Part shown: piece by piece, positions 49,974 to 63,886 of the stretch | Numbering within the stretch: position 1 is the first letter of the stretch | Layout of the letters: every line of letters begins with the position of its first letter | From: a candidate division FCPU426 bacterium | Lineage (GTDB): Bacteria; Oederibacteriota; Muellerivitia; Muellerivitales; Muellerivitaceae | Assembly (NCBI GenBank): GCA_963771075.1 | Contig: CAVYSE010000017.1 | Coordinates: 1 to 64,000, forward strand | DNA length: 64,000 nt | Reading direction: 5' to 3' | Notes under the pieces: model-generated | What the model was told of the DNA's origin: nothing | Seen by the model: the letters and a program-made list of their open reading frames with translations, nothing else | Database searches by the model: none | Position numbers and translations under genes: made by a program

Positions 49974-50295
49974 CGGTGGCCGGCCTTAATTCTTATGAAC
50001 ATTTCTTTTTTAGGCCCGATCAATTAGGGATTTCCGTGTTCGAACATTTATCGCTAGGCTTGATCCATGGGGCATTATCACTAAGCCATTGATGGGGTAA
50101 AGAACAAATTAGGAAATAAGATTGCTAGAAAGGACCCGTTTGATTGGATACCCAAGGGCAATGGCCTGCACCAACGCCTAATTCAAGTTAATTTCACTTG
50201 CGCCGGCTTCAGCACGGTGGCCTTTCCCCTACGGGAAAACCCGGGAATTCAAAGATGCCAAATAGGGATATGGAATTTGCGTTATTTTTCCTTCA

Positions 50296-50320
50296 AGGCC
50301 CCTTTGGGAAAAGGGGCCCG
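50296..50320 (-). terminator. Possible terminator hairpin after cytochrome b
   Basis: GGCCCCTTT-GGGA-AAGGGGCC hairpin; the U-tract is weak. Confidence 0.4.
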
Positions 50321-50328
50321 AAAGGATG

Positions 50329-51963
50329 TTATTTGCCTTGTTGGTACAGGTAATTCGCTAGGTCCTGGATTTGGTTCGGCGTCAACTGATCGGTGAAGCC
50401 CTGCATGGCCGCGTCCTTGTTCAACAGAACTGGGTTCTTGATGTAGGACGCGATGTAGTCCGCGTCGCGGGCCTGGCCGATATGCGAGAGGTCGGGGCCG
50501 ATTTCCTCGCCGACTCCGTGGAACTTGTGGCAGGAGGCGCAGTTGTCCTCGAAAAGCCGGGGCGCCTGGGCCGTGAAGCTCGCCCCGCCCAAACTGCTCA
50601 TATAAGAAACCAGGGCCTCCACTTCGCCGTCCATGAGCTTGAAATTGGGCATCTTGGTGCCCGGGGTGACCTTCTTCGGGTCGCGGAAATGCGCCGCCAG
50701 CCATTCCCGGTCCCTGCGCATGCCCACGTTATCCAAGGCGGGGCCCACCGATCCCCCGTGCCCGTTCAGGATGTGGCAGTATTCGCAATTGAGGGACTGG
50801 AAAAGCCGTTTTCCCTCGGTGATGAGGGGGTCTTTCTTGACCTCCGGGTTGGTCAAGGGCGATTGCGCCCCCAGGATGGTGAAGACGGCCAAGCCCGCGA
50901 TGGTCAGGAGGCCCGCGAGGGTCCATAAGGGCCTTTGAAGCGGATGGCGCAAGGTATTGCGGTCCAAAAAGGGCAGGCCGAATAAAATCCCGAACACGAT
51001 CAAGGGAAGCAGCACGATGGCGAAGGCCTCCAGTGATCCCGGGAAATATTTCAAGAGCTGGAAAACCGCTAGGAAGTACCACTCCGGGCGGGGGTTATAG
51101 GTCGTATCGGTCGGGTTCGCCAGGTCTTCCAGTTCCGCGGGTTTGAAATAAGCCACGAAGGCAAGCACAAGGAAAACCAGCAGGATCGCCAGGATGTCCT
51201 TGAAAATAATGTAGGGGAAGAAGGACAACCCCTGGGCCTTCAGCTGTAGATACCTTTGCTTGAAACGCGATTTCCAGTCCGGGGCCAAGGCTTCCTCTGT
51301 GTTCAATTTTTCGGGCGGGGCCGAAATGCCATGCCAAATGACCAAAAACAGGTGCAAGGCGATGAGGGAAAGGGCGATGGCGGGAAAAACCAGCACATGG
51401 ATGGCGTAAAAACGGGTCAGGGTCACGGCCCCCAGGTCCTGGCTTCCCTTCATGATTTTGGCCAGGTAGGGCCCCAAAATGGGCACCTGTTCCACCATGT
51501 GGGAACCCACGGTCGTGGCCCAATAGGCTTTCTGGTCCCAGGGCAATAGGTAACCGGTAAAGCCAAAACCAATCACGAGGCAGAACAGGCCCACGCCCGT
51601 CAGCCAGGTCACTTCCCGGGGGTACTTGTAGGCCCCCATGAAGAATACCCGAAGCAGGTGCAGGGTCACCGCCACCACCATGCCCGTGGCCCCCCACTTG
51701 TGGATGGCCCGGATCCACTTGCCCATGGGGACGTCGCTGCTGAGAAATTGGACGGAATCGTAGGCATGGTCGGGCGAGGGGGAATAATGCATGGCCAGAA
51801 GGATGCCCGTCACGACCTGGACTGTGAAGAGGAAAAGGGTCACACTCCCGAGCGTGTACCACCAGTTCACGCCCTTGGGGATGTGGCGGTCGAGGATGAC
51901 TTCTTTCACCTTTTTCCAGCCCGTGCGCTCGTCCAGCCAATCGAGGATCTCTTTCATGGTCAA
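50329..51963 (-). CDS. Cytochrome b subunit of a Rieske/cytochrome b complex, fused to a di-heme cytochrome c
   Basis: H..GA, GYLLPWDQ, TRFY..H, PEWY; C-terminal CEYCH and CASCH. Confidence 0.92.
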   Translation of the reverse strand: MTMKEILDWLDERTGWKKVKEVILDRHIPKGVNWWYTLGSVTLFLFTVQVVTGILLAMHYSPSPDHAYDSVQFLSSDVPMGKWIRAIHKWGATGMVVAVTLHLLRVFFMGAYKYPREVTWLTGVGLFCLVIGFGFTGYLLPWDQKAYWATTVGSHMVEQVPILGPYLAKIMKGSQDLGAVTLTRFYAIHVLVFPAIALSLIALHLFLVIWHGISAPPEKLNTEEALAPDWKSRFKQRYLQLKAQGLSFFPYIIFKDILAILLVFLVLAFVAYFKPAELEDLANPTDTTYNPRPEWYFLAVFQLLKYFPGSLEAFAIVLLPLIVFGILFGLPFLDRNTLRHPLQRPLWTLAGLLTIAGLAVFTILGAQSPLTNPEVKKDPLITEGKRLFQSLNCEYCHILNGHGGSVGPALDNVGMRRDREWLAAHFRDPKKVTPGTKMPNFKLMDGEVEALVSYMSSLGGASFTAQAPRLFEDNCASCHKFHGVGEEIGPDLSHIGQARDADYIASYIKNPVLLNKDAAMQGFTDQLTPNQIQDLANYLYQQGK

Positions 51964-52460
51964 CCCTCCGTGGGCAGGATCGAGACGACTCCGCTTTCCA
52001 CCTTCACGGAGTAGTGGTCCAGGGGCCGGGGAGGGGGGCCGGAAACCACCTTGCCACTCTTGTCGTAAACGCCGTTATGGCAGGGGCAGAGAAAAAGCTT
52101 CTGGTCCGCGTCCCAGCGGTAGGGACAGCCCAAATGGGTGCAATGGGGGTCGAAGGCCGTGAGCTTCCCCTGTTCCTTCAGCATCCAAACGTTGCCGCGG
52201 CTCTCGGTGGTAGCCCACCCGTCCATGATGCGCTGGATGAATTCCTTCTTGACCGGCTGGCCCTCGGGCAGGTCCTTTTCGAGGCCGATCTCGATCCAAT
52301 TTTCCTTCTTCCCCAGCCAGGCCGGGGAAAGGAAATAAACCGCCCCGCTTCCCCCGAGGACAAAAGCGATCACGCCGCCGATAAAGGCGATGGCCGCTCC
52401 CAGGAATTTTCGCCGCTCGGAATTCTCGGGTTCATTGTTTTTTTTATCCAACGGGCACAT
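51960..52460 (-). CDS. Rieske iron-sulfur subunit
   Basis: Tat motif RRKFL; CTHLGC and CPCH. Confidence 0.92.
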   Translation of the reverse strand: MCPLDKKNNEPENSERRKFLGAAIAFIGGVIAFVLGGSGAVYFLSPAWLGKKENWIEIGLEKDLPEGQPVKKEFIQRIMDGWATTESRGNVWMLKEQGKLTAFDPHCTHLGCPYRWDADQKLFLCPCHNGVYDKSGKVVSGPPPRPLDHYSVKVESGVVSILPTEG

Positions 52461-52525
52461 TTAAATCTCCTTGAGGGATCTCGTATCAGCCGGAACTCCA
52501 CTGGGAAAAAAGGACGGCCCGGGCT

Positions 52526-52918
52526 TTACTTCGCGGTGACGCTTTCGTCCGGGTTCCCTTCCCCGATCAAGCTCTTCAAATAAAGGGCCACCTCGTGGAT
52601 TTGATCGTCTGTCAATTTGCCCCGGTAGTTCGGCATCCGGTGTTTGCCCGAATCGACCATCGTCTCGATCTGGAACACGGACATGCGGACGACTTCATCC
52701 CGGTGCAGGTTGATTTTATCCCGGGTCACATTCAAGAGCTTGAGCATCTTGGGGTTTCCCGTGGCGTCCTTGGCATGGCAACGGGCGCATTTACCCTCGA
52801 AGAGTTTCTTTCCGGTCACCAGCTCGTCCCCGAACACCGTTGAAAAAGACAGGACATAACAAAGCAGGGCGAGAATAACCGGTATTGTTGTGGCGAATCC
52901 CCTCTTTGGCCTATTCAT
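52526..52918 (-). CDS. Monoheme cytochrome c
   Basis: Signal peptide, CARCH, distal RMP; GAGGAGG RBS. Confidence 0.85.
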   Translation of the reverse strand: MNRPKRGFATTIPVILALLCYVLSFSTVFGDELVTGKKLFEGKCARCHAKDATGNPKMLKLLNVTRDKINLHRDEVVRMSVFQIETMVDSGKHRMPNYRGKLTDDQIHEVALYLKSLIGEGNPDESVTAK

Positions 52919-53030
52919 GCGAACCTCCTCATTCTGCGGTTGAAAGGCGGGCATTGCAGCCGAATCCGCCGGCGGTCCAATGCCCATTCCATCCATTAAC
53001 CGGCTCCTTCGCTTCCCAACATTCCCCAAT

Positions 53031-53061
53031 AAAAAAAGCCGGGGGAGAGCACCGGCTTTTT
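53031..53061. terminator. Intrinsic terminator
   Basis: A7-GCCGG...CCGGC-T5. Confidence 0.7.
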
Positions 53062-53104
53062 AAACTGCCTTGAGTGGGGGAAATGAGACCATGCCCCGCC
53101 AAAC

Positions 53105-53470
53105 TTATTTCGCCGTTTGAAGGCTTTTCACGTACTGGACCACCTGTTGGATCTGGTCCGGGGTCAGCTTCCCCTTGAATTTGGGCATCTTGCCCTTGCC
53201 CGTCGAGACGATAGTGGCCAGGTCTTCCGCCTTCGCGGTGACGGCTGCGCCGCTGGTCAAATCCACCCGGGAAGGATCCACCTTCATGACCTTGGCGATC
53301 TTGGCGTTTCCCTTGGCGTCCTTGCCGTGGCATTGGGCGCACTTGGACTCGAAAAGCTTCTGGTTGGCGGGCACTGCGGCGTCCGCCCCATAAGCGTAGG
53401 TGCAGGTAAAGAGCAGGGCCGAGAAGAATATCCCCAATAGTGCCGCGACTTCCCTTAAGTACTGTTTCAT
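53105..53470 (-). CDS. Monoheme cytochrome c
   Basis: Signal peptide, CAQCH, KMPKF. Confidence 0.9.
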   Translation of the reverse strand: MKQYLREVAALLGIFFSALLFTCTYAYGADAAVPANQKLFESKCAQCHGKDAKGNAKIAKVMKVDPSRVDLTSGAAVTAKAEDLATIVSTGKGKMPKFKGKLTPDQIQQVVQYVKSLQTAK

Positions 53471-53530
53471 TTTTTTCTCCCGCGTGGAATGATGAAAAAA
53501 CGACCGACTACCTGTCTGAAACACCCGCTA

Positions 53531-53559
53531 ACTTTAAACAACCTGTGCCCCGGGTTCAA
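53531..53559 (-). promoter_or_regulatory. Sigma70-like promoter
   Basis: TTGAAC-N17-TAAAGT. Confidence 0.45.
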
Positions 53560-53638
53560 ATCAATTTTCCTGGCGATAGGGTTTTCAGAGTTGTCCGACT
53601 TTCAAAGGATATTGTGGCTAAAAGGGGGGATTAGGACG

Positions 53639-53688
53639 TCCGGGAAAAAACCGGGTTTATGCCGGAGGAACTCCGTAAAAAACACGGA
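53639..53688. promoter_or_regulatory. Paired palindromic operator sites
   Basis: TCCGG-N7-CCGGG and TCCGT-N7-ACGGA, starts 33 bp apart; same arrangement at 60877-60926. Confidence 0.6.
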
Positions 53689-53719
53689 GATTTCATAGAA
53701 GGAAGGGGAAAATCCCCGT

Positions 53720-54067
53720 CTAATTCATTTTCCTTTTTGGGAGCTTCGCGGAGAAGAGGATCATGTTGAAGATGTGGACGATCCCCACCAACAGGCATTG
53801 CCACCCGAAATAACCGGCGGCCACCTTGATCATTTCATGCGCGTCCTTGAAGTCCTCCTGCCCATAAGCCATGCGGATGAAGATATAGCCGAAATTGATC
53901 AGGTAAAAACCGAGGTCCATCAAGGCCATTAGGGACTGGGACCCTTCCGATTTTTTTGGAAAGATGTAACTCAGGAAATAACTTCCATGCCGCTTCAAAA
54001 GCCTCGAAACAACGATGGTAAAAACGACTCCCAGCACCAGATAACAAAGGTCGAAGTAAATCACCAT
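53720..54067 (-). CDS. Hypothetical membrane protein
   Basis: Three hydrophobic segments, GFYLINFGY motif. Confidence 0.7.
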   Translation of the reverse strand: MVIYFDLCYLVLGVVFTIVVSRLLKRHGSYFLSYIFPKKSEGSQSLMALMDLGFYLINFGYIFIRMAYGQEDFKDAHEMIKVAAGYFGWQCLLVGIVHIFNMILFSAKLPKRKMN

Positions 54068-54109
54068 ATCGCCGCCTCCCCCTCTACCACCCCAGGAAAC
54101 CTTATCCAG

Positions 54110-54337
54110 CTAAGACCTTTTCTGGCGTCCCTGAAATACCTTGTGCCTCACCAGGTCCTTCCATACGTTCGCCAGGTAAAGCACCAGCCCGAGCAGCAAC
54201 AGGGGCTGGCCGATGAAAAGATAAATCAAAAGCGTGACGGGTGAATTATACAGCAGCACCGTCAAGGCCGCCGCGGACCCCAAAAAACAGAGGACGAGGG
54301 CGACTTTCAGCCAGGGACCCAGGTCGAAAAAGATCAT
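54110..54337 (-). CDS. Small two-TM membrane protein
   Basis: MIFFDLGP.. start overlaps the stop of the NapC-like gene (ATGA). Confidence 0.7.
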   Translation of the reverse strand: MIFFDLGPWLKVALVLCFLGSAAALTVLLYNSPVTLLIYLFIGQPLLLLGLVLYLANVWKDLVRHKVFQGRQKRS

Positions 54338-54936
54338 GGGGCCGCCTCCGTGTTCCCCGGCGTATGGGCCGGCCCGTGACAGTCCAAGCAGGAAGTCCCG
54401 CCGGTCCTCAGGTCTTCCATGATGGCCAGGTGGGTGGGGGCCTCCAGGAACTTCTTGGACTCCCCGTGGCAATGCAGGCAGTTGGAGGTGTTGTAGGGCT
54501 TGTAAAGCTGGATGGGTTCCTTGACTTCCTTGAAGATATTCGCGTAAACGTGCCGGAGCCCATTCATCTTGGCCTTCTCGTCCCCGAAGAGGGAGTAGTC
54601 CGTATGGCAGGTGAAACACTGGTCTTCCCGGATGTAGCGGTTCTTGTAATGCAGGGACGCCAGGCTTTCGCTTTGCGGGTCCTTCATGTCGCGCACCCGG
54701 CTTTCCATGACGTGGCAGGAGGTGCAAAATGCGACGGTTTTGGAGGTTTCAAAGCTGACCCCCGTTCCAAACAGCAGCACGACCAGGGGCGAAATACCCA
54801 AGACCGCCAAAAGAAACCCCTTCAGCCAGTCCAAATTGGGTAGCGGCAAGGGGAACAGTAATACGATGAAACAGAAAAGCATCATCAGGGCCGCCGCGCC
54901 CACGCCTACCCATGTGAAAAAAACGATTTCTGTCAT
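54334..54936 (-). CDS. NapC/NirT-family membrane-anchored tetraheme cytochrome c
   Basis: N-terminal TMs; FCTSCHVM, CFTCH, CLHCH, CLDCH. Confidence 0.88.
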   Translation of the reverse strand: MTEIVFFTWVGVGAAALMMLFCFIVLLFPLPLPNLDWLKGFLLAVLGISPLVVLLFGTGVSFETSKTVAFCTSCHVMESRVRDMKDPQSESLASLHYKNRYIREDQCFTCHTDYSLFGDEKAKMNGLRHVYANIFKEVKEPIQLYKPYNTSNCLHCHGESKKFLEAPTHLAIMEDLRTGGTSCLDCHGPAHTPGNTEAAP

Positions 54937-55052
54937 GTCGGAATCCTGGAACCTTTGGTGAATTTAAAATTTGTTCGAATTCCACCCCGCCCTCAAAAAG
55001 GATCCGAGGAGCGGAAAGGTCCTTTCCCTGATTTTCCCCTTGCCTCCCGCGC

Positions 55053-55331
55053 TTAAACGCGTGAACGGGTGGAACTGGCCCTTCGTTTGGGGGTTTTTTT
55101 TATCCCGGATAAATTGGGGGAAGTGGTGGCTTGGACATCCAGAAGCACCGGTATGACCCCCTGGGGTCCCTCCTGGGCCTGGACGGCGGGGGTTCCCTCC
55201 CCATTAGCGGCCTTCTTGAACTCGCGCATGGCCTCGCCCATGGCCTTTGCCAAATCAGGCAACTTCTGGGGGCCAAAAAGAAGCATGGCCACGATCACCA
55301 AAAGCAGTATTTCTCCGAAGCGTCCGCCCAT
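55053..55331 (-). CDS. tatA: Twin-arginine translocase TatA/E subunit
   Basis: EILLL...LLFGPQKLPDLAKAMGEAMREFKKA. Confidence 0.9.
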   Translation of the reverse strand: MGGRFGEILLLVIVAMLLFGPQKLPDLAKAMGEAMREFKKAANGEGTPAVQAQEGPQGVIPVLLDVQATTSPNLSGIKKTPKRRASSTRSRV

Positions 55332-55430
55332 GTCACACTCCTTCGTTTAATCCACGAGGGGGAGGAGTCACCCAACCCCTTGATTCAGTTGAATTCCAGA
55401 TTGATGGCCGGGGAAACCCCTCCGTCCATG

Positions 55431-55465
55431 AAAAAAAGCGGTTCGCAATGTCGCGAACCGCTTTT
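55431..55465. terminator. Intrinsic terminator closing the mtrA-mtrB-lipoprotein unit
   Basis: A7-GCGGTTCGC...GCGAACCGC-T4. Confidence 0.75.
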
Positions 55466-55483
55466 GAGTTCCATTTTCCCGGC

Positions 55484-57070
55484 TTAATACATCGTCAGGT
55501 TGTCGATGATGAAGTCCGACGTAGGAGTCTGGCCCGACGCACTGGCCTTGATCTCAACACCGATCGCCGTCACATCCGTCGAGTCGGCCGCCCAACTGAC
55601 TGCATCAGGCGCGAGTTTGAGCGTAGTCCACCCAGCATCAATTCCGGTGGGAAGGCTGGTGAAATTGGGATTAATGGCGCCACTGATGGAACCACCGCCG
55701 TAGACATTCCCATTCGCGTTCATATAGATGGCGCCTCCGATCCAACCAGGCCCAGGAACCGCATCAGACATCACCCAAACCACCATGCTCACCCCTGACG
55801 CGTTATATTGCTGGAAATTGATTGGGAATGGGCTACTGCCGCTCGTTTGCGCTTGTATGTCGTTACCCGCCGACGAGTTCATGGTCAAATCCAAACCATA
55901 ATTGTTGGAAGCCGTTGGAGCAGAAATGCCGGCATCTGATCCCTGAAGTGCCGTGTAGAGCTGGACCGCGACGGAATCCCCCGTCGCGGGAGAAGCCACA
56001 CTGAATCCATCCACCGTATTATCCTCAAGGGTCCAGGAATACTTGGGGATATAGGTCGCCGTCACGGTGGGAGTGACGGTCGGTGTAATCGTCGCCGTGG
56101 AAGTCACGGTCGGCGTATTTGTTTTCGTCGGCGTTAGGGTTTTAGTAATGGTGATTGTGGGCGTACTGGTAACCGTCGAGGTGTAACCATCGAGATTCGT
56201 GTTCGTAGGCGTCGCCGTATTGGTGGCGGTATTGGTGCTTGTAGGCGTATTGGTGACCGTAGGCGTATTGGTAACCGTCGGAGTGTTGGTGATGGTCGAG
56301 GTGTATCCACTGAGATTCGTGTTTGTAGGCGTTGGTGAGTTCGTGACAGTCGGGGTCATCGTGATTGTTTTTGTTGAAGTAGCCGTAGCGGTCGGCCCCA
56401 ACTGTGTGATGGTCACGGCATCTATATAGACCAAGCTCGTGTTAAAACTGGTGCCCTCAGGGCCGGTTCCAAAATTAAGGCTGACCTGCTGGACATCCGC
56501 CAGGTTGTTCGGCGGATTATTGTTGAGTGTCAGGGTATAGAGGACCCACCCGCCTGTAGCTGTCGCCGGGAAAGATTGCGACTGAATGACATTATTGCTT
56601 CCGCTTAAAAGCGCGAGCTCAATATAGGGAGTGGCGCCTAGACCCGACGAGAATACCTTGGAAATGGATACGGCCATGCTGAGGGTTCCCGCGTTGATGA
56701 GATTGATGCCGCCGGGAAAAGTGAAGGAATAATTGCCGAACTGACCCGGTCCTTTGAAGGCCAGGGATGCGCCAAAACAGGACGCGCTAGCGCTGTATCC
56801 GCCCGCCACGCTTACCGGACTCACGCTTAACGCGGCGGTTGCACCGTTGGCTGTGGATCCTTTACCCATCCAGGTGATGGGAGCCCCAAAATCAGCCCCG
56901 GCAACGTCGAAATTCCAGGCGATCGGCAGGCTTTGGACCGCCAGCGAGGCCGGCAATTGGGCCTGGGTGGGGCTGGCGCTGGTGGGGCTGTTGTACATTT
57001 TGCAGGCGGGCAGTATCAGCAAGGTTCCGGCGAGAAAAGCGAGAACCAAAGTCGAATTTTTGAATTTCAT
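55484..57070 (-). CDS. Lipoprotein with two carbohydrate-binding-like domains joined by a Thr/Pro linker
   Basis: Lipobox LPAC; domains ending VYIDAVTI and FIIDNLTMY; no CxxCH. Confidence 0.8.
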   Translation of the reverse strand: MKFKNSTLVLAFLAGTLLILPACKMYNSPTSASPTQAQLPASLAVQSLPIAWNFDVAGADFGAPITWMGKGSTANGATAALSVSPVSVAGGYSASASCFGASLAFKGPGQFGNYSFTFPGGINLINAGTLSMAVSISKVFSSGLGATPYIELALLSGSNNVIQSQSFPATATGGWVLYTLTLNNNPPNNLADVQQVSLNFGTGPEGTSFNTSLVYIDAVTITQLGPTATATSTKTITMTPTVTNSPTPTNTNLSGYTSTITNTPTVTNTPTVTNTPTSTNTATNTATPTNTNLDGYTSTVTSTPTITITKTLTPTKTNTPTVTSTATITPTVTPTVTATYIPKYSWTLEDNTVDGFSVASPATGDSVAVQLYTALQGSDAGISAPTASNNYGLDLTMNSSAGNDIQAQTSGSSPFPINFQQYNASGVSMVVWVMSDAVPGPGWIGGAIYMNANGNVYGGGSISGAINPNFTSLPTGIDAGWTTLKLAPDAVSWAADSTDVTAIGVEIKASASGQTPTSDFIIDNLTMY

Positions 57071-57212
57071 GAAACCCTCCCCGAAACTTGATTTTTTAGT
57101 TTACTAGCCCGAGTAAATCCGACCGGCTATTCGGCGTTCTTTAAACCTCATCCTTACTGAAACAGAGTGAACCGGCCTTTTCCCTTTTCAACGGGAAACA
57201 GCCGAACCTTGA

Positions 57213-59573
57213 TTACAATTTTGCCGTTAACGTCAGGCTGGCCATTTGAGCGGTATAGGGCGCGTCCCATCCTCCCAGAAACATATAATTTAAGGCGCCG
57301 GTAGCGGGTACTGATGAAATACTGCCTACACCGTCGGTTTGCCAATCGTTGACGTTATAAACCTCCAGGAGATAGCTTCCCCGCAGGCTCCAGGTCTCGC
57401 TGATGTGGTACGTAACCCCGAAATTGAAATCTTCCTTCCAATACATGGTATTGGGAAGACTTTGGGTGGGTTGATACACGGCCACCGTGACCGGAGCCCC
57501 GCCCTGTTGAATCACTTGGGAGACCGGAACTCCCGCCGCGGTCAAAGGAAATTGGTTGTTATATCCGCTGAAGATATAGTCACCGGTGTTGTTGGTAAGC
57601 GTCCAACGGGCGTCCAAGTCCACCTTCGAGTTCATCTGATAATTGCCCGCAAAGGAAAGATAGGTAGTGTTTTCCTGCTCATTGAGATACCAGACTTCAC
57701 CCGGGTTAAGCGGGTTTGATGGACTTATATTGCTCGGCCCGTTCGCTTGGTTGTAATTGTAGTTTTCCCAATTAACAGTCCCCGACAGGTTCAAATTGTC
57801 CAGAGGCTGCCAGACAGCCGAAAAGGTCGTGATGTCATGGTAATCGCTCAACAAGCCCAATTGAGTGTTCGAGTTGAGGATGGTCGCCGGAGCTCCGAGC
57901 GAGGTAGTGTAAACATCTCCAGTCAAAGCTTCCGAGCCAGGTTGATAATTATCCCCGCCGGTCGTCCAAGCCGCTGACAACCAAAGGTTTTTCGTGACAT
58001 CGAGCTTCACCTTGGTGGTGAACTCATTGACAACACGATCTGCGATATCATAACGCCGGAATGTGCTTGACAAGGCATCCCCATAGTCGAAAGGCGCATT
58101 GACAGTGCCCGCATTCGGTTGAATTTCCAGATCATTCGTCCAGTTCGACTGACTCGCCACCCGGTCGGAATAAGTGTAATCCCCGCTCACATCCAACCCG
58201 TGAAGAGGCTTCAGATCCAAACCACCCTTGGCGGTTTGCTCCGTGGTCGCCGAAATTTCCCGATCCTGATAATTTTCCCAATTGCAATCATAACCGGCAT
58301 TTAACTGAAGACCCCTCATCAGGGTATAGGTCGCCTTACCGCCCAGATCCTGATTGACCCAACCGAAGTTGTTATTGACCACATTACCGGTATTGACAGC
58401 CCAACTCGCGTCTTTGTCCACATAACCGGGGAAATCAAGGAGAGCGGTCATATCCGCCTGCTCGTAATCTTTATACCGTAAACTGACCACCAGATCCTTT
58501 GTGGGCCGGGAGGTCAAGACGTAATTCTGCGTCAAGATTTGGATACAACCATTCAAGGATTGATAAGCCAAACTGTTCGTGTTGGCAAGCGAGGTCGCCC
58601 CCGGCGGCATACCGGCCGCCGGCAAAGGATCCGCCGTATTCGCGGTATAGGGTAAAAAGGGCTGGTCTTGAGTCTCATAGCCCAGTGAAAAATCAGCGTT
58701 CGCGCGGGTTTCATTATTGATATCCAACAATCCGGAGATCTTGAACGTGTTGGCAAGATTGCTCGGCGCCAAGGAGGCTTGTTCGATACTCGAGGTGCCG
58801 GGTATGCTGTTAGCTTGAGCGGGATTTGACCAGATGATACTGGGAAGACTGTTTTCGTAATCCGAAATCTCGTAACTCGCCCTGAGCGCAAATCCTTTTC
58901 CGTCGTACTCCGCTTTGACATCGCTTTGCGTCGTGGTTTCGTTTAATTCCTGAGGAAGCTCCACCGCTGAGTAGAAAGCGATCGGCCGGCTTCCCGTGCG
59001 CCATTTCTGGTTGCCCCCGACCTCAATATCAAATTCCGGGCTGACTTGGTACTTGGCGGTACCCCCCAACACCGTGTCATGGAGGCCCATCGAAACAGGC
59101 TGGCCATTGGTGTTTTGGTAATTAAGCAAATTTTGGTATTCCTGCTGGCTGGACTGTCCCTGGTTTTCCAAAAGGAGCGATTGGGGAAGCAGGTAAAGAT
59201 TGGGCGAGGGATTGGACCAGATCGTCTCGCCGGTATTCGTGTAAAGATGCTGGTACTGCTGGAAGTTCACATCGACCGTCAGGTCATTCTGGTATTGCAT
59301 GTCCAGGCTGGCTTTCCGGTTGAACCCCCCACCGTCGCTAAAATCCAGGCCGAGGATCCCGTCTTCCCCCTCATAATCCAGCCTGCCGTTCATGACGGCT
59401 CCATCCGGCGAGGCCAGGTATTCGTTGAATTTCGCCTGGTCGGTGGGCTGCAGGTTCGCCTGGAACCCGGAGGTCACATCGCCCGACCATTGGTTGTCGG
59501 CAAAAACCGCCGTGGCGCAGGCCGTGAAGACCAACCCCGCCAGACATTTCCAGACCCGAAATTGATTCCCCAT
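57213..59573 (-). CDS. MtrB/PioB-family outer-membrane porin
   Basis: Signal peptide, AKFNEY, L.P.N.A, QDQPFLPYT.N, RRYDIADR, Y..ND(W); directly downstream of a decaheme cytochrome. Confidence 0.85.
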   Translation of the reverse strand: MGNQFRVWKCLAGLVFTACATAVFADNQWSGDVTSGFQANLQPTDQAKFNEYLASPDGAVMNGRLDYEGEDGILGLDFSDGGGFNRKASLDMQYQNDLTVDVNFQQYQHLYTNTGETIWSNPSPNLYLLPQSLLLENQGQSSQQEYQNLLNYQNTNGQPVSMGLHDTVLGGTAKYQVSPEFDIEVGGNQKWRTGSRPIAFYSAVELPQELNETTTQSDVKAEYDGKGFALRASYEISDYENSLPSIIWSNPAQANSIPGTSSIEQASLAPSNLANTFKISGLLDINNETRANADFSLGYETQDQPFLPYTANTADPLPAAGMPPGATSLANTNSLAYQSLNGCIQILTQNYVLTSRPTKDLVVSLRYKDYEQADMTALLDFPGYVDKDASWAVNTGNVVNNNFGWVNQDLGGKATYTLMRGLQLNAGYDCNWENYQDREISATTEQTAKGGLDLKPLHGLDVSGDYTYSDRVASQSNWTNDLEIQPNAGTVNAPFDYGDALSSTFRRYDIADRVVNEFTTKVKLDVTKNLWLSAAWTTGGDNYQPGSEALTGDVYTTSLGAPATILNSNTQLGLLSDYHDITTFSAVWQPLDNLNLSGTVNWENYNYNQANGPSNISPSNPLNPGEVWYLNEQENTTYLSFAGNYQMNSKVDLDARWTLTNNTGDYIFSGYNNQFPLTAAGVPVSQVIQQGGAPVTVAVYQPTQSLPNTMYWKEDFNFGVTYHISETWSLRGSYLLEVYNVNDWQTDGVGSISSVPATGALNYMFLGGWDAPYTAQMASLTLTAKL

Positions 59574-59599
59574 GTCGCTTCCTCCTTAAGTGATTACCG

Positions 59600-60673
59600 T
59601 TACCTCTGGAATACTTGACCGGCTTTTCCCGGGAAATTACTGCCGTGGATGTTGTAGTGACAGTTCACGCAGCTACCGCCAAGCATTTCTTTTTGGCCAG
59701 CGTTCAATTGTTGACAATCCATGGCCGGTTTGTCGCTATGGCAGCGCTGGCAGAGGAAAGGCGCTCTTTGCGACAGCATGTGGTCGTTGTTGGAACCGTG
59801 CGGGTTATGGCAGTTCAGGCAGCTTTCCTGGACCGGCGGATGCTCGAAGAGGAAGGGGCCCCTCTTATCCGCGTGGCACTTCAAGCAGGTTTCCCGGACG
59901 GAGTCCTCGTTCAGGTTCGTGTTGCCGGAGGTTCCATGCATGTCATGGCAGGAGACGCAGGACATCTCGTCCTCATTGAGGGGCATGTGGCCGTTCTGCG
60001 AGATCTGGGCTTTCTTCTCGATATGGCAGGTAAAGCACACGTCCATGATCTTGGCGGCCTTCAGGATGTGCTTGTTGGGGTTCTTGGGGTCCTTCTGGTG
60101 GACCATATGGCAGGAAACGCAGGTGACATTCTTCATGTCATGCGGGCTTCCCTCCCAATGGAATTGCGCCTGGGCCTTGTGGCAGGAAAGACAGATGGCG
60201 TTCGCATCGGGCGCGGGCATATCGGGGGGGAACTTGATCGTTTTGAACCTGGCATCGGCGGTGTTGTCGGCGAATTCCACGTGCAGGCTTCCGGGCCCGT
60301 GGCAGGTTTCGCAAGTCTTATCGGCGGGAACGTGGCTTTTGCTCGTGAAAAGCCTTCCCATCGCGGAATGCTGGAAGCTGTCCCCGTTATCCTGGTGGCA
60401 GGTGATGCAGGTATCGGTTCCCACGAACTTGGGGATGTTCTCCGTATCCTCCTGGGCCGCCACGGTTTGCCCTGCGGCGCTCGCCGGTTCGGAAACCTTG
60501 TCGGCGGCTCCCTCGGCATCCGGCGCGGAGGGGGTGGCCGCGGAAACGGCGCTGGGCGTCGGGGAAGAATCGGCCTTATCGGCCCATACTCCTTGAAGTG
60601 AGCAAAAGGCTAGGATCATTAAACTTCCGGCGAGTGCTTTCGCGATCCCCCGGTTGACCGTTGGCTTTTTCAT
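59600..60673 (-). CDS. MtrA/DmsE/MtoA-family decaheme cytochrome c
   Basis: Ten CxxCH motifs; KRGPFLFEHPPV..C..CH.PHGS, PFLCQRCH and C.NCH..IHGSN.P signature. Confidence 0.93.
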   Translation of the reverse strand: MKKPTVNRGIAKALAGSLMILAFCSLQGVWADKADSSPTPSAVSAATPSAPDAEGAADKVSEPASAAGQTVAAQEDTENIPKFVGTDTCITCHQDNGDSFQHSAMGRLFTSKSHVPADKTCETCHGPGSLHVEFADNTADARFKTIKFPPDMPAPDANAICLSCHKAQAQFHWEGSPHDMKNVTCVSCHMVHQKDPKNPNKHILKAAKIMDVCFTCHIEKKAQISQNGHMPLNEDEMSCVSCHDMHGTSGNTNLNEDSVRETCLKCHADKRGPFLFEHPPVQESCLNCHNPHGSNNDHMLSQRAPFLCQRCHSDKPAMDCQQLNAGQKEMLGGSCVNCHYNIHGSNFPGKAGQVFQR

Positions 60674-60876
60674 CTGTCTTCCCCCCTTATTGGTTTAAAA
60701 CCCATTTCCCGCTTCAAGTACGCCTTTGCGTTGTACCGGCCGGGAAAAGTATTTGAAGGTTCTCCGGCTCTTTTTCGTTTGCTCTCTCGTCTGAAACCCG
60801 GCAGGTCTGGCCCGGAAGTTTTTTTGGTTTACCCCTTTGTTACGGCTTATCTTGTCCTATCCTGACAAATGGTTCA

Positions 60877-60926
60877 TCCGCAGAAAAAACGGGTTCTTTC
60901 CCCGGCGCCTACGTAAAAAATACTGA
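60877..60926. promoter_or_regulatory. Paired palindromic operator sites upstream of the decaheme gene
   Basis: TCCGC-N7-ACGGG and TACGT-N7-ACTGA, starts 33 bp apart. Confidence 0.6.
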
Positions 60927-60981
60927 AAGGCTCTCCTTCCCGCCGCGGTTCACCAGCCCCGTTACTTTTCAACCTTCCCGA

Positions 60982-62184
60982 TTAGGAATGTTTCTTGGCC
61001 GCCGAAAGCCAGGGCGGCAGGAGACGGACCAAGGCCCAAAGGATGAAAATTGGCAAGACCATCAAAACCGCGCTCAAGAGCAGACCCTCACGGCCGATGA
61101 AATCGGGTTTATAGGTGGTAAACCCGGCCAGGCTCTTGGAAAAAAGCTGGCCCCCGATGACCACGTTCCAGCGGACCGCGAAGACACCGATGAGCACCAG
61201 GCAGGCGGAACCTACGTGGAATATCTTCCTGACGTTTTCGGGAAGCTTGAACAACTGGGTGCTGCCCAGGGCGGCGAGGGGCAAGAGCGTACCCAGGCAC
61301 AATTGGATGACGACCAGGGACAGGAAAAGCTTTCCGGCCACCAGCAAGACCAGGATGTCGATGGATTCCTCCGCCTCGTAAAGCCGGTGGAACCAATCCA
61401 GCGATTCCATCGCGAAGTCAAGGATCAGGGCGTAAAAGAGGAATTTCCCCATGGCGTCCAGGCAGGACATCTGGATCTGCACCTTCCGAATCAGGCAGGT
61501 CACGAAGTAAACCACCAGCATCAGGGCGATGCCGGAAACGACGGCGGAAAAGATGAAGATGACCGGCATCAGCACGGTTCCCCACCAGGGGTTGGCCTTG
61601 ATAGAGCCGAAAATGAAGCCCACATAGCCGTGCAGGAAAAAGGCCGAGGGAATGCCGATGACGGTGATGATCTTCCCCGCCTTGTCGTCCACCGCCAGGG
61701 CTTTTTCCGACGTGTCCTTCACGCCCAGGGTGAGAAGCCCGTAAAATTTCCCGACCCAGCCGGGTTTGGTTTGGGAAAACCTCACGATATCCGCCCGGTA
61801 GTCGTACCAAATCTCCAGGAGGAGCACCGCCATCAGGTACCAGGCATAAACGAACCCGAACATGGCCATGGGCGACGACCAGTGGGGGGTAATCAGGACT
61901 TCCAGGCACCGTTCCGGGTGACCCAGGTGAAACAAAAGAGGCAGCGGGGCGACGATCAGGAAGGAAAGGGCGGTCAACAGGGCTAGCCGGTAGATGGGCT
62001 TGATCTCGTGGACCTTAAACACGCGCTCCAGGGAAGCCAGGATGAAGGCGCCCGCCACCAGGCCCGTCAGGTAGGGGTAAATGACGATCAGGATGCTCCA
62101 CTGCAATTCCAATTCGTTGGGGTAAATATAGCCCTTCACCTGCTGGAGGGCCTCCACAATGGTGCGGATGAAATTGGGATCCAT
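60982..62184 (-). CDS. NrfD/PsrC-family quinone-interacting membrane subunit
   Basis: W..LI..YPY..GL.AG, HLGHP.R, SSPM, RWNVVIGGQ; many TMs. Confidence 0.9.
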   Translation of the reverse strand: MDPNFIRTIVEALQQVKGYIYPNELELQWSILIVIYPYLTGLVAGAFILASLERVFKVHEIKPIYRLALLTALSFLIVAPLPLLFHLGHPERCLEVLITPHWSSPMAMFGFVYAWYLMAVLLLEIWYDYRADIVRFSQTKPGWVGKFYGLLTLGVKDTSEKALAVDDKAGKIITVIGIPSAFFLHGYVGFIFGSIKANPWWGTVLMPVIFIFSAVVSGIALMLVVYFVTCLIRKVQIQMSCLDAMGKFLFYALILDFAMESLDWFHRLYEAEESIDILVLLVAGKLFLSLVVIQLCLGTLLPLAALGSTQLFKLPENVRKIFHVGSACLVLIGVFAVRWNVVIGGQLFSKSLAGFTTYKPDFIGREGLLLSAVLMVLPIFILWALVRLLPPWLSAAKKHS

Positions 62185-62969
62185 TATTTCACCGCCATGT
62201 CGAGGCCCACGTAGTAAACCTTCGGATGGGTGTTCAACTGGGGCTTCAAAACCTGGACCTTGTTATCCGTCAGGAAGGCGTGGATCGGGCTTTCCGGGTC
62301 CTTCAGGTCGCCGAATTTCCGCGCGCCCGTGGGGCAGACTTCCACGCAGGCCGGCTGCAGTCCGCGGGTGATGCGATGGTAACAGAGGGTGCATTTTTCG
62401 GCGGTCTGGGTCACCGGGCTGAAGAAACGACAGCCGTAGGGGCAGGCCTGGACGCAAAACCGGCAGCCGATGCAGTAGTTCGGGTCGACCAGGACGACGC
62501 CATCCGGGGAACGGAAGGTGGCGCCCGTCGGGCAAACCTGGGAGCAGGGCGAGTCCTCGCAGTGGTTGCACAATTTCGGGACGAAAAAGGATTTGTCGAC
62601 CCCTTGGATCTCGTCGGTCGGGGGAAACCCGTCGCTCCCCCCGTTGGGCGAGTCGATATAGACCGCCTGGCCGTTCCTCACCCCGTATCTTTCCACCCAT
62701 GTCCGGAAATAACAGGGCTCTTCGGGAACATTGTTTTCGGCCTTGCAGGAGGCCACGCAACGTCCGCATCCAATGCACTTTTCCACGTCGATGGAGATGC
62801 ACCATTTGTGGTCGGTGGGTTTATAGCCTTCCGGAAGCGCGGTGGCGCCCCGGGCCTTGCGCGGGGCCCAAAAGAACAGGCCCGATTGGATGGAGGCCAT
62901 GATCATCATGAACTTCACGGCGACCTTCATGAACTGCCTGCGCGAGAGGGTTTCGAGTGTGGGTTTCAT
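62184..62969 (-). CDS. Tat-exported 4Fe-4S dicluster protein (NrfC-like)
   Basis: SRRQF; CIGCGRC, CNHC..PC..VCP, CIGC..C..ACPY, KCTLC..PACV..CP. Confidence 0.92.
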   Translation of the reverse strand: MKPTLETLSRRQFMKVAVKFMMIMASIQSGLFFWAPRKARGATALPEGYKPTDHKWCISIDVEKCIGCGRCVASCKAENNVPEEPCYFRTWVERYGVRNGQAVYIDSPNGGSDGFPPTDEIQGVDKSFFVPKLCNHCEDSPCSQVCPTGATFRSPDGVVLVDPNYCIGCRFCVQACPYGCRFFSPVTQTAEKCTLCYHRITRGLQPACVEVCPTGARKFGDLKDPESPIHAFLTDNKVQVLKPQLNTHPKVYYVGLDMAVK

Positions 62970-63412
62970 CGTTTCTCCGGATGGTGGGGATCATGGCACT
63001 TGATGCAATCCTGCCCGGGATAATGGCTCGATAAAGCGACCTGGGGAAACAGCTTGGGCCGGGTCACGTTTTGGCCGTGGCACTTGAGGCACCATTCGTT
63101 CGTTCCGCTTTTGATGGGGGGGGAAATGGAGGGGTCTTCCACATGGGCTTCGGCGGGTCCATGGCAGGTCTCGCAGCTTTGGCTTCCGTGCTTGGAGGCG
63201 TTGAACTCCGCCACCCTTTGGTCATGGCAATCTATGCATACCTTCTTGCCCGCGAAGTGAATGGGCTTGGACGCCAATTCGCCCAGCGCGTCCCCCCGGT
63301 AATGGCCGTACTCATAAAAGGAAGCCGGCCTCACGTAGTTGCGGACCACCAGGAAAACGCCGATAAGCACCAGGAAAATCACGATGGGTTTCCAGACTTG
63401 CTGGGGAATCAT
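62966..63412 (-). CDS. Small membrane-anchored tetraheme cytochrome c
   Basis: N-terminal TM; CIDCH, CETCH, CLKCH, CIKCH. Confidence 0.9.
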   Translation of the reverse strand: MIPQQVWKPIVIFLVLIGVFLVVRNYVRPASFYEYGHYRGDALGELASKPIHFAGKKVCIDCHDQRVAEFNASKHGSQSCETCHGPAEAHVEDPSISPPIKSGTNEWCLKCHGQNVTRPKLFPQVALSSHYPGQDCIKCHDPHHPEKR

Positions 63413-63517
63413 GTTTTTTCTCCGCCAAGGAAGATGGGTGGTGCCGACGCGGGGGACGGACGTCCCCTTCCCCCGCGCGCGGCGGTCGATCTCCCCATGG
63501 GTGTTTTGAGCTTCTCT

Positions 63518-63886
63518 TTACTTCGCTGCCGGCGGCGCCTGCAGGGTGCGGAGGTATTGGACCACGTCGGCGATTTCCTGCGCCGTCAGCTTGCCGGTGT
63601 ACTTCGGCATTTTCTTCTTGCCGGCTGTGACGATCTTGATGGTGGCGTCATCGGTCAATTTAGCCGCCGTGGAGCTGGTCAGATCCAAGGCCGAGGCGTC
63701 CACTTTTAGCATCTTGGACATTTTGGCCACGCCCTTGCCGTCCTTGCCGTGGCACGAAGTGCACTTGGCGCCGTAATCTTTTTGTGCGGCCGTCATGTCC
63801 GCCCCTTGGGCGTAAGTGGAGGTGAAAAGCAGTACTGAAAAAAGAATGCTTAAGAAAGCCACGATTTCCCTGATATGCTGTTTCAT
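63518..63886 (-). CDS. Monoheme cytochrome c (paralog of 53105-53470)
   Basis: Signal peptide, CTSCH, KMPKY. Confidence 0.9.
   Translation of the reverse strand: MKQHIREIVAFLSILFSVLLFTSTYAQGADMTAAQKDYGAKCTSCHGKDGKGVAKMSKMLKVDASALDLTSSTAAKLTDDATIKIVTAGKKKMPKYTGKLTAQEIADVVQYLRTLQAPPAAK

Follow-up and report, generated by a model that had tools for sequence, protein, structure and literature searches.

An MtrAB-type conduit at the locus where most relatives carry a Cyc2-like cytochrome-porin

Introduction

The Cyc2 family is known for iron oxidation. NapC proteins and modules of the tetraheme-FeS-NrfD kind are chiefly associated with quinol oxidation for outward transfer (CymA, NetBCD, Geobacter Cbc4). 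It is not settled if an mtrAB pair points to reduction or to oxidation of iron, nor what Cyc2 homologues do when they fall outside cluster 1. Wires of the MtrA family are described as reversible, and MtoA and MtrA are unseparated on the trees discussed in PMC10734462 and PMC8805035. Sideroxydans lithotrophicus is reported to employ Cyc2 plus MtoAB, the latter on magnetite (10.1101/2024.09.20.614158), and the His/Met hemes of PioA have been linked to its higher potential (PMC13741234).

Here we analyse a window of 64,000 nucleotides at the start of a contig (C17) from a candidate division FCPU426 bacterium. A first-pass annotation had described positions 50329-63886 as a self-contained electron transfer island with 23 heme-c motifs, an MtrAB-type conduit and three kinds of quinone-side module.

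Results

All genes of the cluster lie on the minus strand, and their first-listed labels and order agree with the ORF count and family profile matches:

63518..63886, minus: monoheme class I (c6-like) cytochrome c with signal peptide; CxxCH and KMP Met
62966..63412, minus: membrane-anchored tetraheme cytochrome c in CbcS/NetB-like position; four CxxCH, one N-terminal helix
62184..62969, minus: twin-arginine 4Fe-4S protein (NrfC/DsrO/TtrB-like); PF13247 E 3e-28
60982..62184, minus: NrfD/PsrC-family membrane protein, predicted quinone site; PF03916 E 6e-36
60910..60926, minus: candidate regulator site ahead of mtrA: TCAGTA-T5-TACGTA, an imperfect palindrome
59600..60673, minus: MtrA/MtoA/PioA-family decaheme; TIGR03508, 6r2q_A homology, ten CxxCH
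57213..59573, minus: MtrB/PioB-family outer-membrane porin, 786 aa; PF11854, profile against 6r2q_B
55484..57070, minus: heme-free lipoprotein; two domains, Thr/Pro linker (56% T+P)
55425..55475, minus: terminator-like hairpin followed by a U run, 3' of the lipoprotein gene; z -6.6
55053..55331, minus: TatA; TIGR01411 57.7 against a cut-off of 53.9
54334..54936, minus: CymA/ImoA-like tetraheme of the NapC/NirT family; CxxCHxM at heme 1 and a pair of N-terminal helices
54110..54337, minus: 75-aa two-helix membrane protein overlapping the NapC stop
53720..54067, minus: 115-aa three-helix membrane protein (helix prediction), no family
53672..53688, minus: second palindrome copy in the window, upstream of a monoheme gene
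53105..53470, minus: monoheme class I cytochrome c
53025-53075: weaker terminator-like hairpin after that gene; z -2.3
52526..52918, minus: monoheme class I cytochrome c; family profile match
51960..52460, minus: twin-arginine Rieske protein; PF00355, CTHLGC and CPCHNGVYD
50329..51963, minus: cytochrome b with PEWY and without the heme ci Cys, carrying a fused diheme class I cytochrome c
50270..50330, minus: hairpin closing the cluster; z -4.3
C17:64041-64057 and C17:71567-71583: palindrome copies outside the window, from the motif search

A recount of the ORFs of 50329-63886 again gave 23 CxxCH motifs (1+4+10+4+1+1+2), with one further monoheme besides. Only nine stop-to-stop ORFs in 4.39 Mb hold at least two CxxCH, five of them on C17 inside the cluster, so this clustering of hemes is not chance. 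The description as self-contained is not supported: the cluster encodes no terminal oxidase or reductase and continues past 63886 and out of the window to about C17:75120, making 28 hemes in ~25 kb. The added part carries a second copy of the whole tetraheme-FeS-NrfD module (C17:68536-71419), a sensor system and Ccs genes, and the monoheme at 63518..63886 is 75% identical to a fourth copy at C17:71051-71419. Given the hairpins within and at the end of the cluster and the 308-bp gap before mtrA, the genes probably form several transcription units rather than one. A sigma-70 and terminator scan of the cluster gave matches at chance level, and a search for FNR boxes returned no distinct site upstream of its genes.

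The decaheme scored 258.7 bits against TIGR03508 (cut-off 192.2), passing a check suggested at first pass, and matched solved MtrA (6r2q_A, E 5.5e-54). The adjoining porin gene begins after a gap of 26 bp. Its 786-aa product scored 222.5 against PF11854 (cut-off 23, E 1.5e-65), and a profile of eight homologues matched S. baltica MtrB (6r2q_B, E 2.6e-57), whereas the single sequence found no match in the PDB; against TIGR03509 it stayed below cut-off (153.8 against 240.05), although the match spans residues 41-786 and the whole model. Judged by these profiles the protein is an MtrB-like porin, the identity whose failure would have undone the initial interpretation; a crude strand-periodicity score did not tell porins from controls. 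A scan of genome contigs with the decaheme returned four distant, uninformative loci. No second decaheme (MtrC) was found in the genome (96.7% complete), where PF22113 matches only MtrA and NapC. Together with the TIGR03508 and PF11854 matches, this bears out an MtrAB-type conduit without MtrC. The annotation had added that such loci typify Fe(II) oxidisers; MtrC is indeed absent, but its absence alone is weak evidence for direction, as discussed in PMC8805035 and PMC10734462. The lipoprotein 3' of mtrB may have a carbohydrate-binding-like N-domain (Atlas matches scored 0.90 or less), and its single-sequence fold was unusable (pLDDT 38). A short form lies 3' of mtrB in G014; a role of the lipoprotein as MtrC substitute is unsupported, as it follows mtrB in two of four family loci and has a paralogue on contig C16.

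Closer inspection of the distal ligand columns found His in eight of ten, against ten in the MtrA type. Met105 replaces a distal His of MtrA and aligns with Met of R. palustris PioA-type proteins; the column is Met in 29 and His in 91 of 120 homologues. A single origin of this ligand was rejected (p-AU 1e-4), and by this test the PioA-like Met was gained independently of PioA. Position 105 is His, in like context, in the three other family mtrA genes (G014, G075, G013). The decaheme also lacks the last distal His: no His stands between heme motifs 9 and 10, as in two of 119 homologues. Here Lys315 aligns with a His of the closest relative, whereas Met318, a doubtful candidate for the heme-10 ligand, aligns with a conserved Tyr. 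For a link between Met ligand and gene context in 80 metagenome loci, the long loci are too few (27/80 reach 9 kb) and the ligand calls too crude. PioA heme 7, listed in a review as a third Met candidate, was not reproduced by our alignment.

Two of the quinone-side modules, NrfD and NapC, track the conduit in the phylum. The NrfD module occurs in 8/11 MtrA-bearing genomes against 1/88 others and the NapC of the cluster in 4/11 against none of 88, and G043 holds all three modules in a single run. These findings support the three kinds of module and, for NrfD and NapC, the co-conservation on which the first-pass annotation had staked its claim. An anchored multiheme c, a 4Fe-4S protein and NrfD with no Mo catalytic subunit make up a Cbc4/NetBCD-type architecture; the 4Fe-4S protein has a Fer4_11 match and scored 185.5 against DsrO, below the cut-off of 200. 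The NapC-like tetraheme reached 56.7 against PF03264 (cut-off 24.1), with no match in a single-sequence PDB search. The 75-aa membrane protein also lies 3' of NapC in G075 (59%), and a homologue of the 115-aa protein lies near the Rieske block in G013 (53%).

Rieske boxes, PEWY and a fused diheme c partner identify a Rieske/cytochrome b complex, and the box CPCHNGVY lacks the Ser of high-potential Rieskes, which we take to mark a menaquinol type. This block is not private to the MtrAB wire. Orthologues of the cytochrome b-diheme c occur in 18/31 family genomes: 13 have a Cyc2-like gene within 4 kb, in four the neighbour is mtrAB, within about 5-12 kb, with cyc2 missing from the spot, and one ends at a contig edge. 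A Cyc2-like gene lies somewhere in the genome in 18/18 family members with the block and 2/13 without it, counts in which kin are not independent. We rejected a housekeeping role for the block, which co-occurs with Cyc2; on contig C28 the heme A synthesis genes have a different Rieske/b next to them, together with an octaheme. The MtrAB pair sits where most relatives have a Cyc2-like cytochrome-porin. The cytochrome b-diheme c is a xenologue relative to congeners (AU p 7e-7), and the genes that follow the cluster, from metallophosphoesterase to CTP synthase, correspond to those flanking the cyc2 block of a congener (G003); by tree and flank, the block of this genome arrived laterally at the same flank. 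Cyc2 and mtrAB stand side by side in G053 and in 2/80 metagenome loci, so their exclusion is limited to the locus of this family.

The Cyc2-like proteins combine an N-terminal heme motif with a porin body and have no match in Pfam or NCBIfam. One type (G024 copy) folds as a porin barrel (pLDDT 82; OprP Z 21.2, rmsd 3.5, 315 aligned); the other (G021 copy) matches porin models, and the heme region is common to both (HH probability 97%). Both copies have a C-terminal porin and exceed 365 aa, as expected of Cyc2. The strict motif of Keffer et al. is AxPxFAR[QK][TY], CxxCH, PxL. It is present in the genome's own copy on contig C24 and in most stand-alone copies, whereas all 12 locus-linked proteins whose N-terminus is seen deviate by at least one residue (FSRQT or FARMY). 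Presumably their nearest likeness is to clusters 2 and 3, groups of uncertain function.

Copies of the palindrome stand before mtrA and before three monoheme genes or, counted by module, before mtrA, both NrfD modules and one monoheme gene, with only one weaker match elsewhere in the genome. The response regulator occurs in 2/31 family genomes (G000, G021). In G021 cyc2 is immediately preceded by the regulator and palindrome; in the present genome the palindrome and an ArrX-like sensor system stand at the head of mtrAB.

The genome encodes an aa3 oxidase with the CuA motif, bd oxidases and futalosine menaquinone genes, and a heme-copper oxidase family gene is present in 29/31 family genomes. 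No CO2-fixation markers were found in the genome (neither RbcS nor CdhC was detected), and in the citrate-lyase search the control matched nowhere. The RuBisCO match has KDDH, presumably marking it as RuBisCO-like, and the host looks heterotrophic. The sole molybdopterin-family match is a piece inside the complex I operon, and therefore no Arr/Aio/Ttr/Psr catalytic subunit is encoded.

Discussion

We give about an even chance to the reading that the MtrAB wire serves mainly for electron uptake, from extracellular reduced iron or humic matter, by an oxygen-respiring heterotroph. Occupying the usual spot of Cyc2, a family known for iron oxidation, the wire is likely to take up electrons and not to serve export alone, and a heterotroph is the likeliest user because an aa3 oxidase is present and CO2-fixation markers were not found. 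The earlier verdict that direction could not be determined from sequence was too pessimistic: gene context, the shared promoter motif and the PioA-like Met ligand lean towards uptake, without proving it. Against this stand the reversibility described for MtrA-family wires, His105 in the three other family mtrA genes, the outward role of NapC and NrfD elsewhere, the departure of the locus-linked Cyc2-like proteins from the strict motif, and the ArrX/AioX-like binding protein of the sensor system. Since the MtoA of an iron oxidiser is predicted to be all His/His, Met is not required for uptake.

Electrons from the donor would enter at the presumed surface heme 10, which lacks a distal His, and pass along the heme chain to the presumed heme 2 (His/Met, predicted high potential), then to one of the four soluble monoheme cytochromes and on to the CuA-type aa3 oxidase encoded elsewhere in the genome. 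Low-potential donors could feed menaquinone via NapC or the two tetraheme-FeS-NrfD modules, and the Rieske/cytochrome b-diheme c complex would exchange electrons between the cytochrome pool and menaquinone. As the host looks heterotrophic, such uptake would be an extra source of energy and would not power CO2 fixation.

Three different quinone-side modules, four monoheme shuttles and oxidases of both high and low affinity would also suit a two-way conduit of redox-fluctuating habitats, which we regard as rather unlikely. Menaquinol would then supply Fe(III) or humics through NapC or NrfD under anoxia, flow would turn inward to an oxidase with oxygen, and separate promoters would switch the modules. 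The several transcription units and their separate motif copies, the toggling of His and Met among close relatives and the potential-dependent switching of inner-membrane modules described for Geobacter (PMC13591261) agree with this; however, there is no MtrC for solid acceptors, and the presence of one motif before mtrA, a monoheme gene and the two NrfD modules would fit common control better than opposed control.

It seems unlikely to us that the cluster serves outward flow only, with anaerobic respiration on soluble acceptors of fairly high potential (chelated Fe(III), Mn, humics), from menaquinol through NapC, NrfD or Rieske/b and monoheme c to MtrAB. The NrfD module and NapC do track MtrA, not Cyc2, in the phylum, including in G034 and G053, which lack this cytochrome b; their architecture equals that of Cbc4 (10.1101/2025.04.14.648717) and NetBCD (PMC8805035), and MtrAB without MtrC is reported to reduce soluble Fe(III) (PMC7198977). 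A search of the genome for nitrate and other Mo reductases returned none, leaving the cell without other anaerobic sinks. Yet the pair sits at the Cyc2 locus under a Cyc2-type promoter motif, electrons would tend to flow inward if the periplasmic end holds a high-potential heme, and heme-copper oxidase genes are nearly ubiquitous in the family.

It is very unlikely that the cluster handles oxyanions (arsenic, selenium, sulfur species), for redox use or detoxification, in the manner of the selenite/tellurite Ext operon of Geobacter. The sensor's binding protein does have ArrX (E 5e-47) and AioX as its best PDB matches, the Fe-S protein is TtrB/ArrB-like, and the cytochrome b reaches 226 bits against ExtP, short of the cut-off of 290; but the catalytic subunits are missing, and in G021 kinase and regulator leave no space for a gene of the binding protein. 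That cytochrome genes piled up by chance, or that the conduit is decaying after losing two heme ligands, is scarcely credible, for despite several transcription units, a different gene order in G014 and G075 and longer branches of Met-bearing sequences, all frames are intact, dN/dS is 0.08-0.24, the parts are co-conserved under one motif, and the change from His to Met, which takes three base changes, recurs in P0003 and P0005.

Returning to uptake, we tentatively extend it to a broader picture, in which we place limited confidence: the family would comprise uncultured oxygen-respiring heterotrophs that harvest extracellular electrons through a monoheme-Rieske-cytochrome b socket, into which Cyc2 or MtrAB is repeatedly swapped by lateral exchange under one motif, MtrA having been re-tuned for uptake by recurrent, PioA-convergent His-to-Met change and an altered surface heme site. 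Sister species have both conduits at one locus with the same downstream chain, and one genome pair also shares sensor and promoter motif; a limited literature search found no earlier description. If uptake is correct, 20/31 genomes of this little-studied family could belong to heterotrophs that oxidise iron or humics, which autotroph-centred surveys would miss. Near-identical His/Met decaheme pairs (P0004 and P0003; G014 and the present genome) allow a direct test of one ligand setting potential and direction.

Comparison with known systems

Among described systems, MtoAB-ImoA(CymA)-MtoD/PmcA of Sideroxydans lithotrophicus ES-1 (PMC13390432; 10.1101/2024.09.20.614158) likewise joins a porin-decaheme pair without MtrC, a NapC-family tetraheme and monoheme shuttles in one cluster, in a genome that also holds Cyc2 and oxygen reductases. 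To what is described there our cluster adds two tetraheme-FeS-NrfD modules, the Rieske/cytochrome b-diheme c, Ccs and TatA, and its Met and missing-His ligand changes depart from an MtoA predicted to be all His/His. The Mto pathway of Gallionellaceae works in a lithoautotrophic host, in contrast to a menaquinone host in which no CO2-fixation markers were found. PioAB of Rhodopseudomonas palustris, as described in PMC13741234, shares Met at the first distal-ligand column and has no MtrC; our decaheme is shorter (357 against 544-550 aa), without the ~200-aa N-terminal extension, and keeps His at the second Met column, and unlike PioABC the cluster ORFs gave no HiPIP match and no phototrophy was seen. 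MtrCAB with CymA or NetBCD (Shewanella, Vibrio, Aeromonas; PMC8805035, PMC7198977) has homologous MtrA and MtrB (6R2Q A and B), similar kinds of quinol-side partner and lateral mobility, but here MtrC is absent, a heme-free lipoprotein follows mtrB, and eight of ten distal His remain. Rieske/b is not among the passenger genes of the MtrCAB survey, whose available text has 0 occurrences of 'Rieske' or 'bc1' (PMC8805035). Geobacter Cbc4 (CbcSTU) and Cbc3 (CbcVWX) (10.1101/2025.04.14.648717, PMC13591261) resemble our modules by architecture, with an anchored tetraheme, a 4Fe-4S protein and a membrane subunit in common, and the potential-dependent ImcH/CbcL/CbcBA branching described in PMC13591261 likewise uses parallel quinone-side modules; those studied here instead share a cluster with class I monohemes and an MtrAB conduit, and the genome is of aerobe type. 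Finally, the Cyc2 fused cytochrome-porin (10.1101/228056), as described there, shares its N-terminal heme motif and porin body with the relatives' locus counterpart and the C24 gene; it lies outside the window, and the locus-linked copies are off the strict motif.

Cluster content and host setting

Contig C17, whose first 64 kb make up the window, belongs to a 4.39-Mb genome (G000; 96.7% complete), and the cluster on the window's minus strand is real. All 23 heme-c motifs reported by the first-pass annotation were recovered as CxxCH in the ORFs of 50329-63886, and each of its gene labels was borne out by Pfam and NCBIfam. The decaheme cytochrome matched S. baltica MtrA (6r2q_A, E 5.5e-54); the 786-aa porin scored below the TIGR03509 cut-off, and a profile of eight porin homologues matched MtrB (6r2q_B, E 2.6e-57), upholding its MtrB-type assignment. 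The Rieske Ser, heme ci Cys and NapC CxxCHxM served as criteria for typing their proteins. No MtrC was found across the G000 genome. Past the window end the cluster continues with genes for a binding protein, a kinase and a NarL-type regulator, with another monoheme-tetraheme-FeS-NrfD module (65-78% identical) and with ccsA/resB. In all it spans roughly 25 kb with 28 hemes and, judging by its hairpins and gaps, appears to comprise several transcription units. Between cluster and conserved flank lies a low-GC (47.5%) acyltransferase_3 gene (48837-49973) without a match at the same place in congeners G001 and G003.

The respiratory genes of G000 include a pair of complex I operons, those of the futalosine menaquinone route, an aa3 oxidase that has the CuA motif and lacks a fused heme c, a qNOR-like protein, two matches to the bd family and two further Rieske/b operons. 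One of these (C28:76000-89300, L002), probably the main bc-type complex, encodes Rieske, cytochrome b6, a protein resembling subunit IV and an octaheme cytochrome of 933 aa, and lies next to heme A synthase-like genes; the other (C7:260017-264126) precedes a gene for a bd subunit I-like protein that carries CxxCH, and its counterpart in G024 adjoins the cyc2 block. Searches of the genome uncovered no Mo catalytic subunit and neither RbcS nor CdhC; its RuBisCO match looks RuBisCO-like, KDDH being presumed a sign of this. Beyond a block of close matches, the closest named homologue of CTP synthase is from Ca. Firestonebacteria (66%); the host is taken to belong to an uncultured candidate phylum, probably FCPU426.

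Cyc2 and mtrAB replace each other at one locus

A cytochrome b-diheme c orthologue (at least 62% identity, excluding five genomes whose sole matches are 36-38% paralogues) occurs in 18 of 31 family genomes. Thirteen of these encode, less than 4 kb away, a protein of 417-513 aa whose N-terminus bears a single CxxCH, G001 being counted from a C-terminal part alone at a contig end. In four (G000, G014, G013, G075) mtrA lies about 5-12 kb off in its place, the G075 distance being summed over two joined contigs and unrelated genes separating mtrA from the block in G013; in G011 the block stops at a contig edge. A Cyc2-like gene is present somewhere in 18/18 genomes with the block versus 2/13 without, although these relatives are not independent. 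Three genera each include one member with mtrAB at the locus and sisters with cyc2 there, and congener G003 places cyc2-Rieske-cytochrome b ahead of the same metallophosphoesterase-to-CTP synthase flank as G000. Beyond the family the two can adjoin (G053; metagenome loci L163, L185).

The cytochrome b tree (22 rows) groups G000 with G014/G024/G011 (support 100/99) and rejects placement with its congeners (p-AU 6.7e-7), whereas the CTP synthase tree (18 rows) unites the congeners (100/100). Because these trees conflict, the Rieske/cytochrome b block is judged on phylogeny to have been exchanged laterally, the donor side being unrooted. Stops in the G001 CTP synthase (C136:1338-2897) and a cytochrome b in two frames in G009 (C66:3-1645) may be assembly errors.

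The Cyc2-like proteins fall into two types sharing a heme region, one with a predicted porin fold (pLDDT 82; OprP Z 21.2) and the other matching porin models. Locus-linked copies are slightly off the published motif, and their likeness to Cyc2 clusters 2 and 3 is presumed; a stand-alone G000 copy (C24:109448-110848) carries the motif. It ends an operon of cupredoxin, NapH-like Fe-S membrane protein and cupredoxin-cytochrome c fusion (C24:105932-110848, L100), conserved in G014 (L097), G075 (L098) and G004 (L059), a candidate second uptake chain. Cupredoxins are reported in ES-1 solid-iron oxidation too. A secreted 362-aa G000 protein with one N-terminal CxxCH (C11:443126-444214) has a loosely Cyc2-like context and was not matched by the Cyc2-like profile.

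MtrA occurs in 11/99 phylum genomes, 3/30 other family members and 0/3 congeners. Cluster-type NrfD is found in 9/99 (eight with MtrA) and NapC in 4/99 (all with MtrA). The same parts recur in changed order in G014 and G075, two G075 contigs overlapping by 171 bp at 99% within ccsA, and in G043 a single run contains NapC, the NrfD module and Rieske/b. The top 80 of 425 confirmed metagenome loci show recurrent module pairs and in no case all three; just 27 of the 80 are as long as 9 kb. Other phylum families hold far larger islands around His-type mtrAB (G028, L013/L009/L016; G041, L038; G034, L056/L012), with proteins that carry 8-19 hemes each, several NrfD modules and, in G028, an ACIII-like operon; these may be an outward, anaerobic version.

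A shared promoter motif and a convergent ligand change

An imperfect palindrome, TCMGTA-5-TACGGA, lies upstream of mtrA and three monoheme genes, and a matrix built from these four gave one weaker match elsewhere in G000. The exact pattern has two sites in G000, one in G021 (upstream of cyc2), two in G007 (one upstream of Rieske) and one in G008; the remaining 27 family genomes lack it, and a reversed-pattern control gave no sites. The G021 cyc2 promoter aligns to G000 promoters past the palindrome bounds, and the regulator gene is limited to these two of 31 genomes. We infer that the regulator may bind the palindrome. The G014 and G075 mtrAB loci have neither.

Seven distal ligand columns are all-His in 120/120 decaheme homologues. 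Met occupies column 105 in 29/120, including 544-550-aa R. palustris proteins taken for PioA, and column 192 in 26/120; the G000 decaheme, P0003 and P0005 have Met at 105 alone, each nested among His-bearing sisters. With the ligand columns masked, a tree built from 32 of the 120 homologues rejected both a Met origin shared with the PioA clade (p 1e-4) and a single clade uniting the three proteins with Met at 105 alone (p 0.004). The His after motif 9, lacking in the G000 decaheme, is absent in 2/119 homologues (one 8-heme row left out). From a review's PioA statement and the spacing pattern we infer that the two changes fall at heme 2 (Met105) and heme 10 (the missing His). MtrA-family proteins P0117, L134, L165 and L182 show further swaps (Met after motif 9; by a crude call, Lys after motif 4), so non-His ligands appear commoner than the PioA case suggests.

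Direction of electron flow

Uptake is the likeliest reading, at roughly even odds: electrons would enter by the decaheme-porin wire and reach class I cytochromes, which would hand them on to the aa3 oxidase; those from low-potential donors would instead go into menaquinone via the NapC or NrfD modules. The Rieske/b complex would link the two pools. By analogy with ES-1, dissolved Fe(II) would fall to Cyc2, and solids or humics to the ten-heme wire. Weighing against uptake are the reversibility of MtrA-family wires, the His kept by the three other family copies and the best-known role of NapC/NrfD modules in outward transfer; electron uptake by the locus-linked Cyc2 types is itself a predicted function. 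Two-way use is unlikely, and outward respiration slightly more so. Oxyanion chemistry is brought to mind by the binding protein, closest to ArrX/AioX, and is very doubtful; no arsenic or other Mo oxidoreductase to accompany this sensor was found in G000. The binding protein, its HAMP/HisKA_3 kinase and the NarL-type regulator lie at L001:2278-5419. Decay of the conduit is scarcely credible, dN/dS against G014 or G075 being 0.08-0.24 (porin saturated).

Comparison with known systems

A titles-level search of mostly open literature, using the presumed phylum name, turned up neither a paper that describes conduits for iron redox in this lineage nor one on Cyc2/MtrAB exchange at one locus; supplementary tables may list the lineage's cyc2 or mtoA. 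Our comparisons draw on PMC7198977, PMC13741234, PMC10304953, PMC10654088, PMC8805035, PMC5566968, PMC10734462, PMC13591261, 10.1101/228056, 10.1101/2025.04.14.648717, PMC6295460, PMC13390432 and 10.1101/2024.09.20.614158. Within these, clusters with several inner-membrane partners are already known, as in R. ferrireducens (PMC6295460; PMC8805035), and the component parts here are familiar. To these the present cluster adds the swap with Cyc2 at one locus, the shared motif and the convergent change of ligand, all of which make the direction of electron flow testable.
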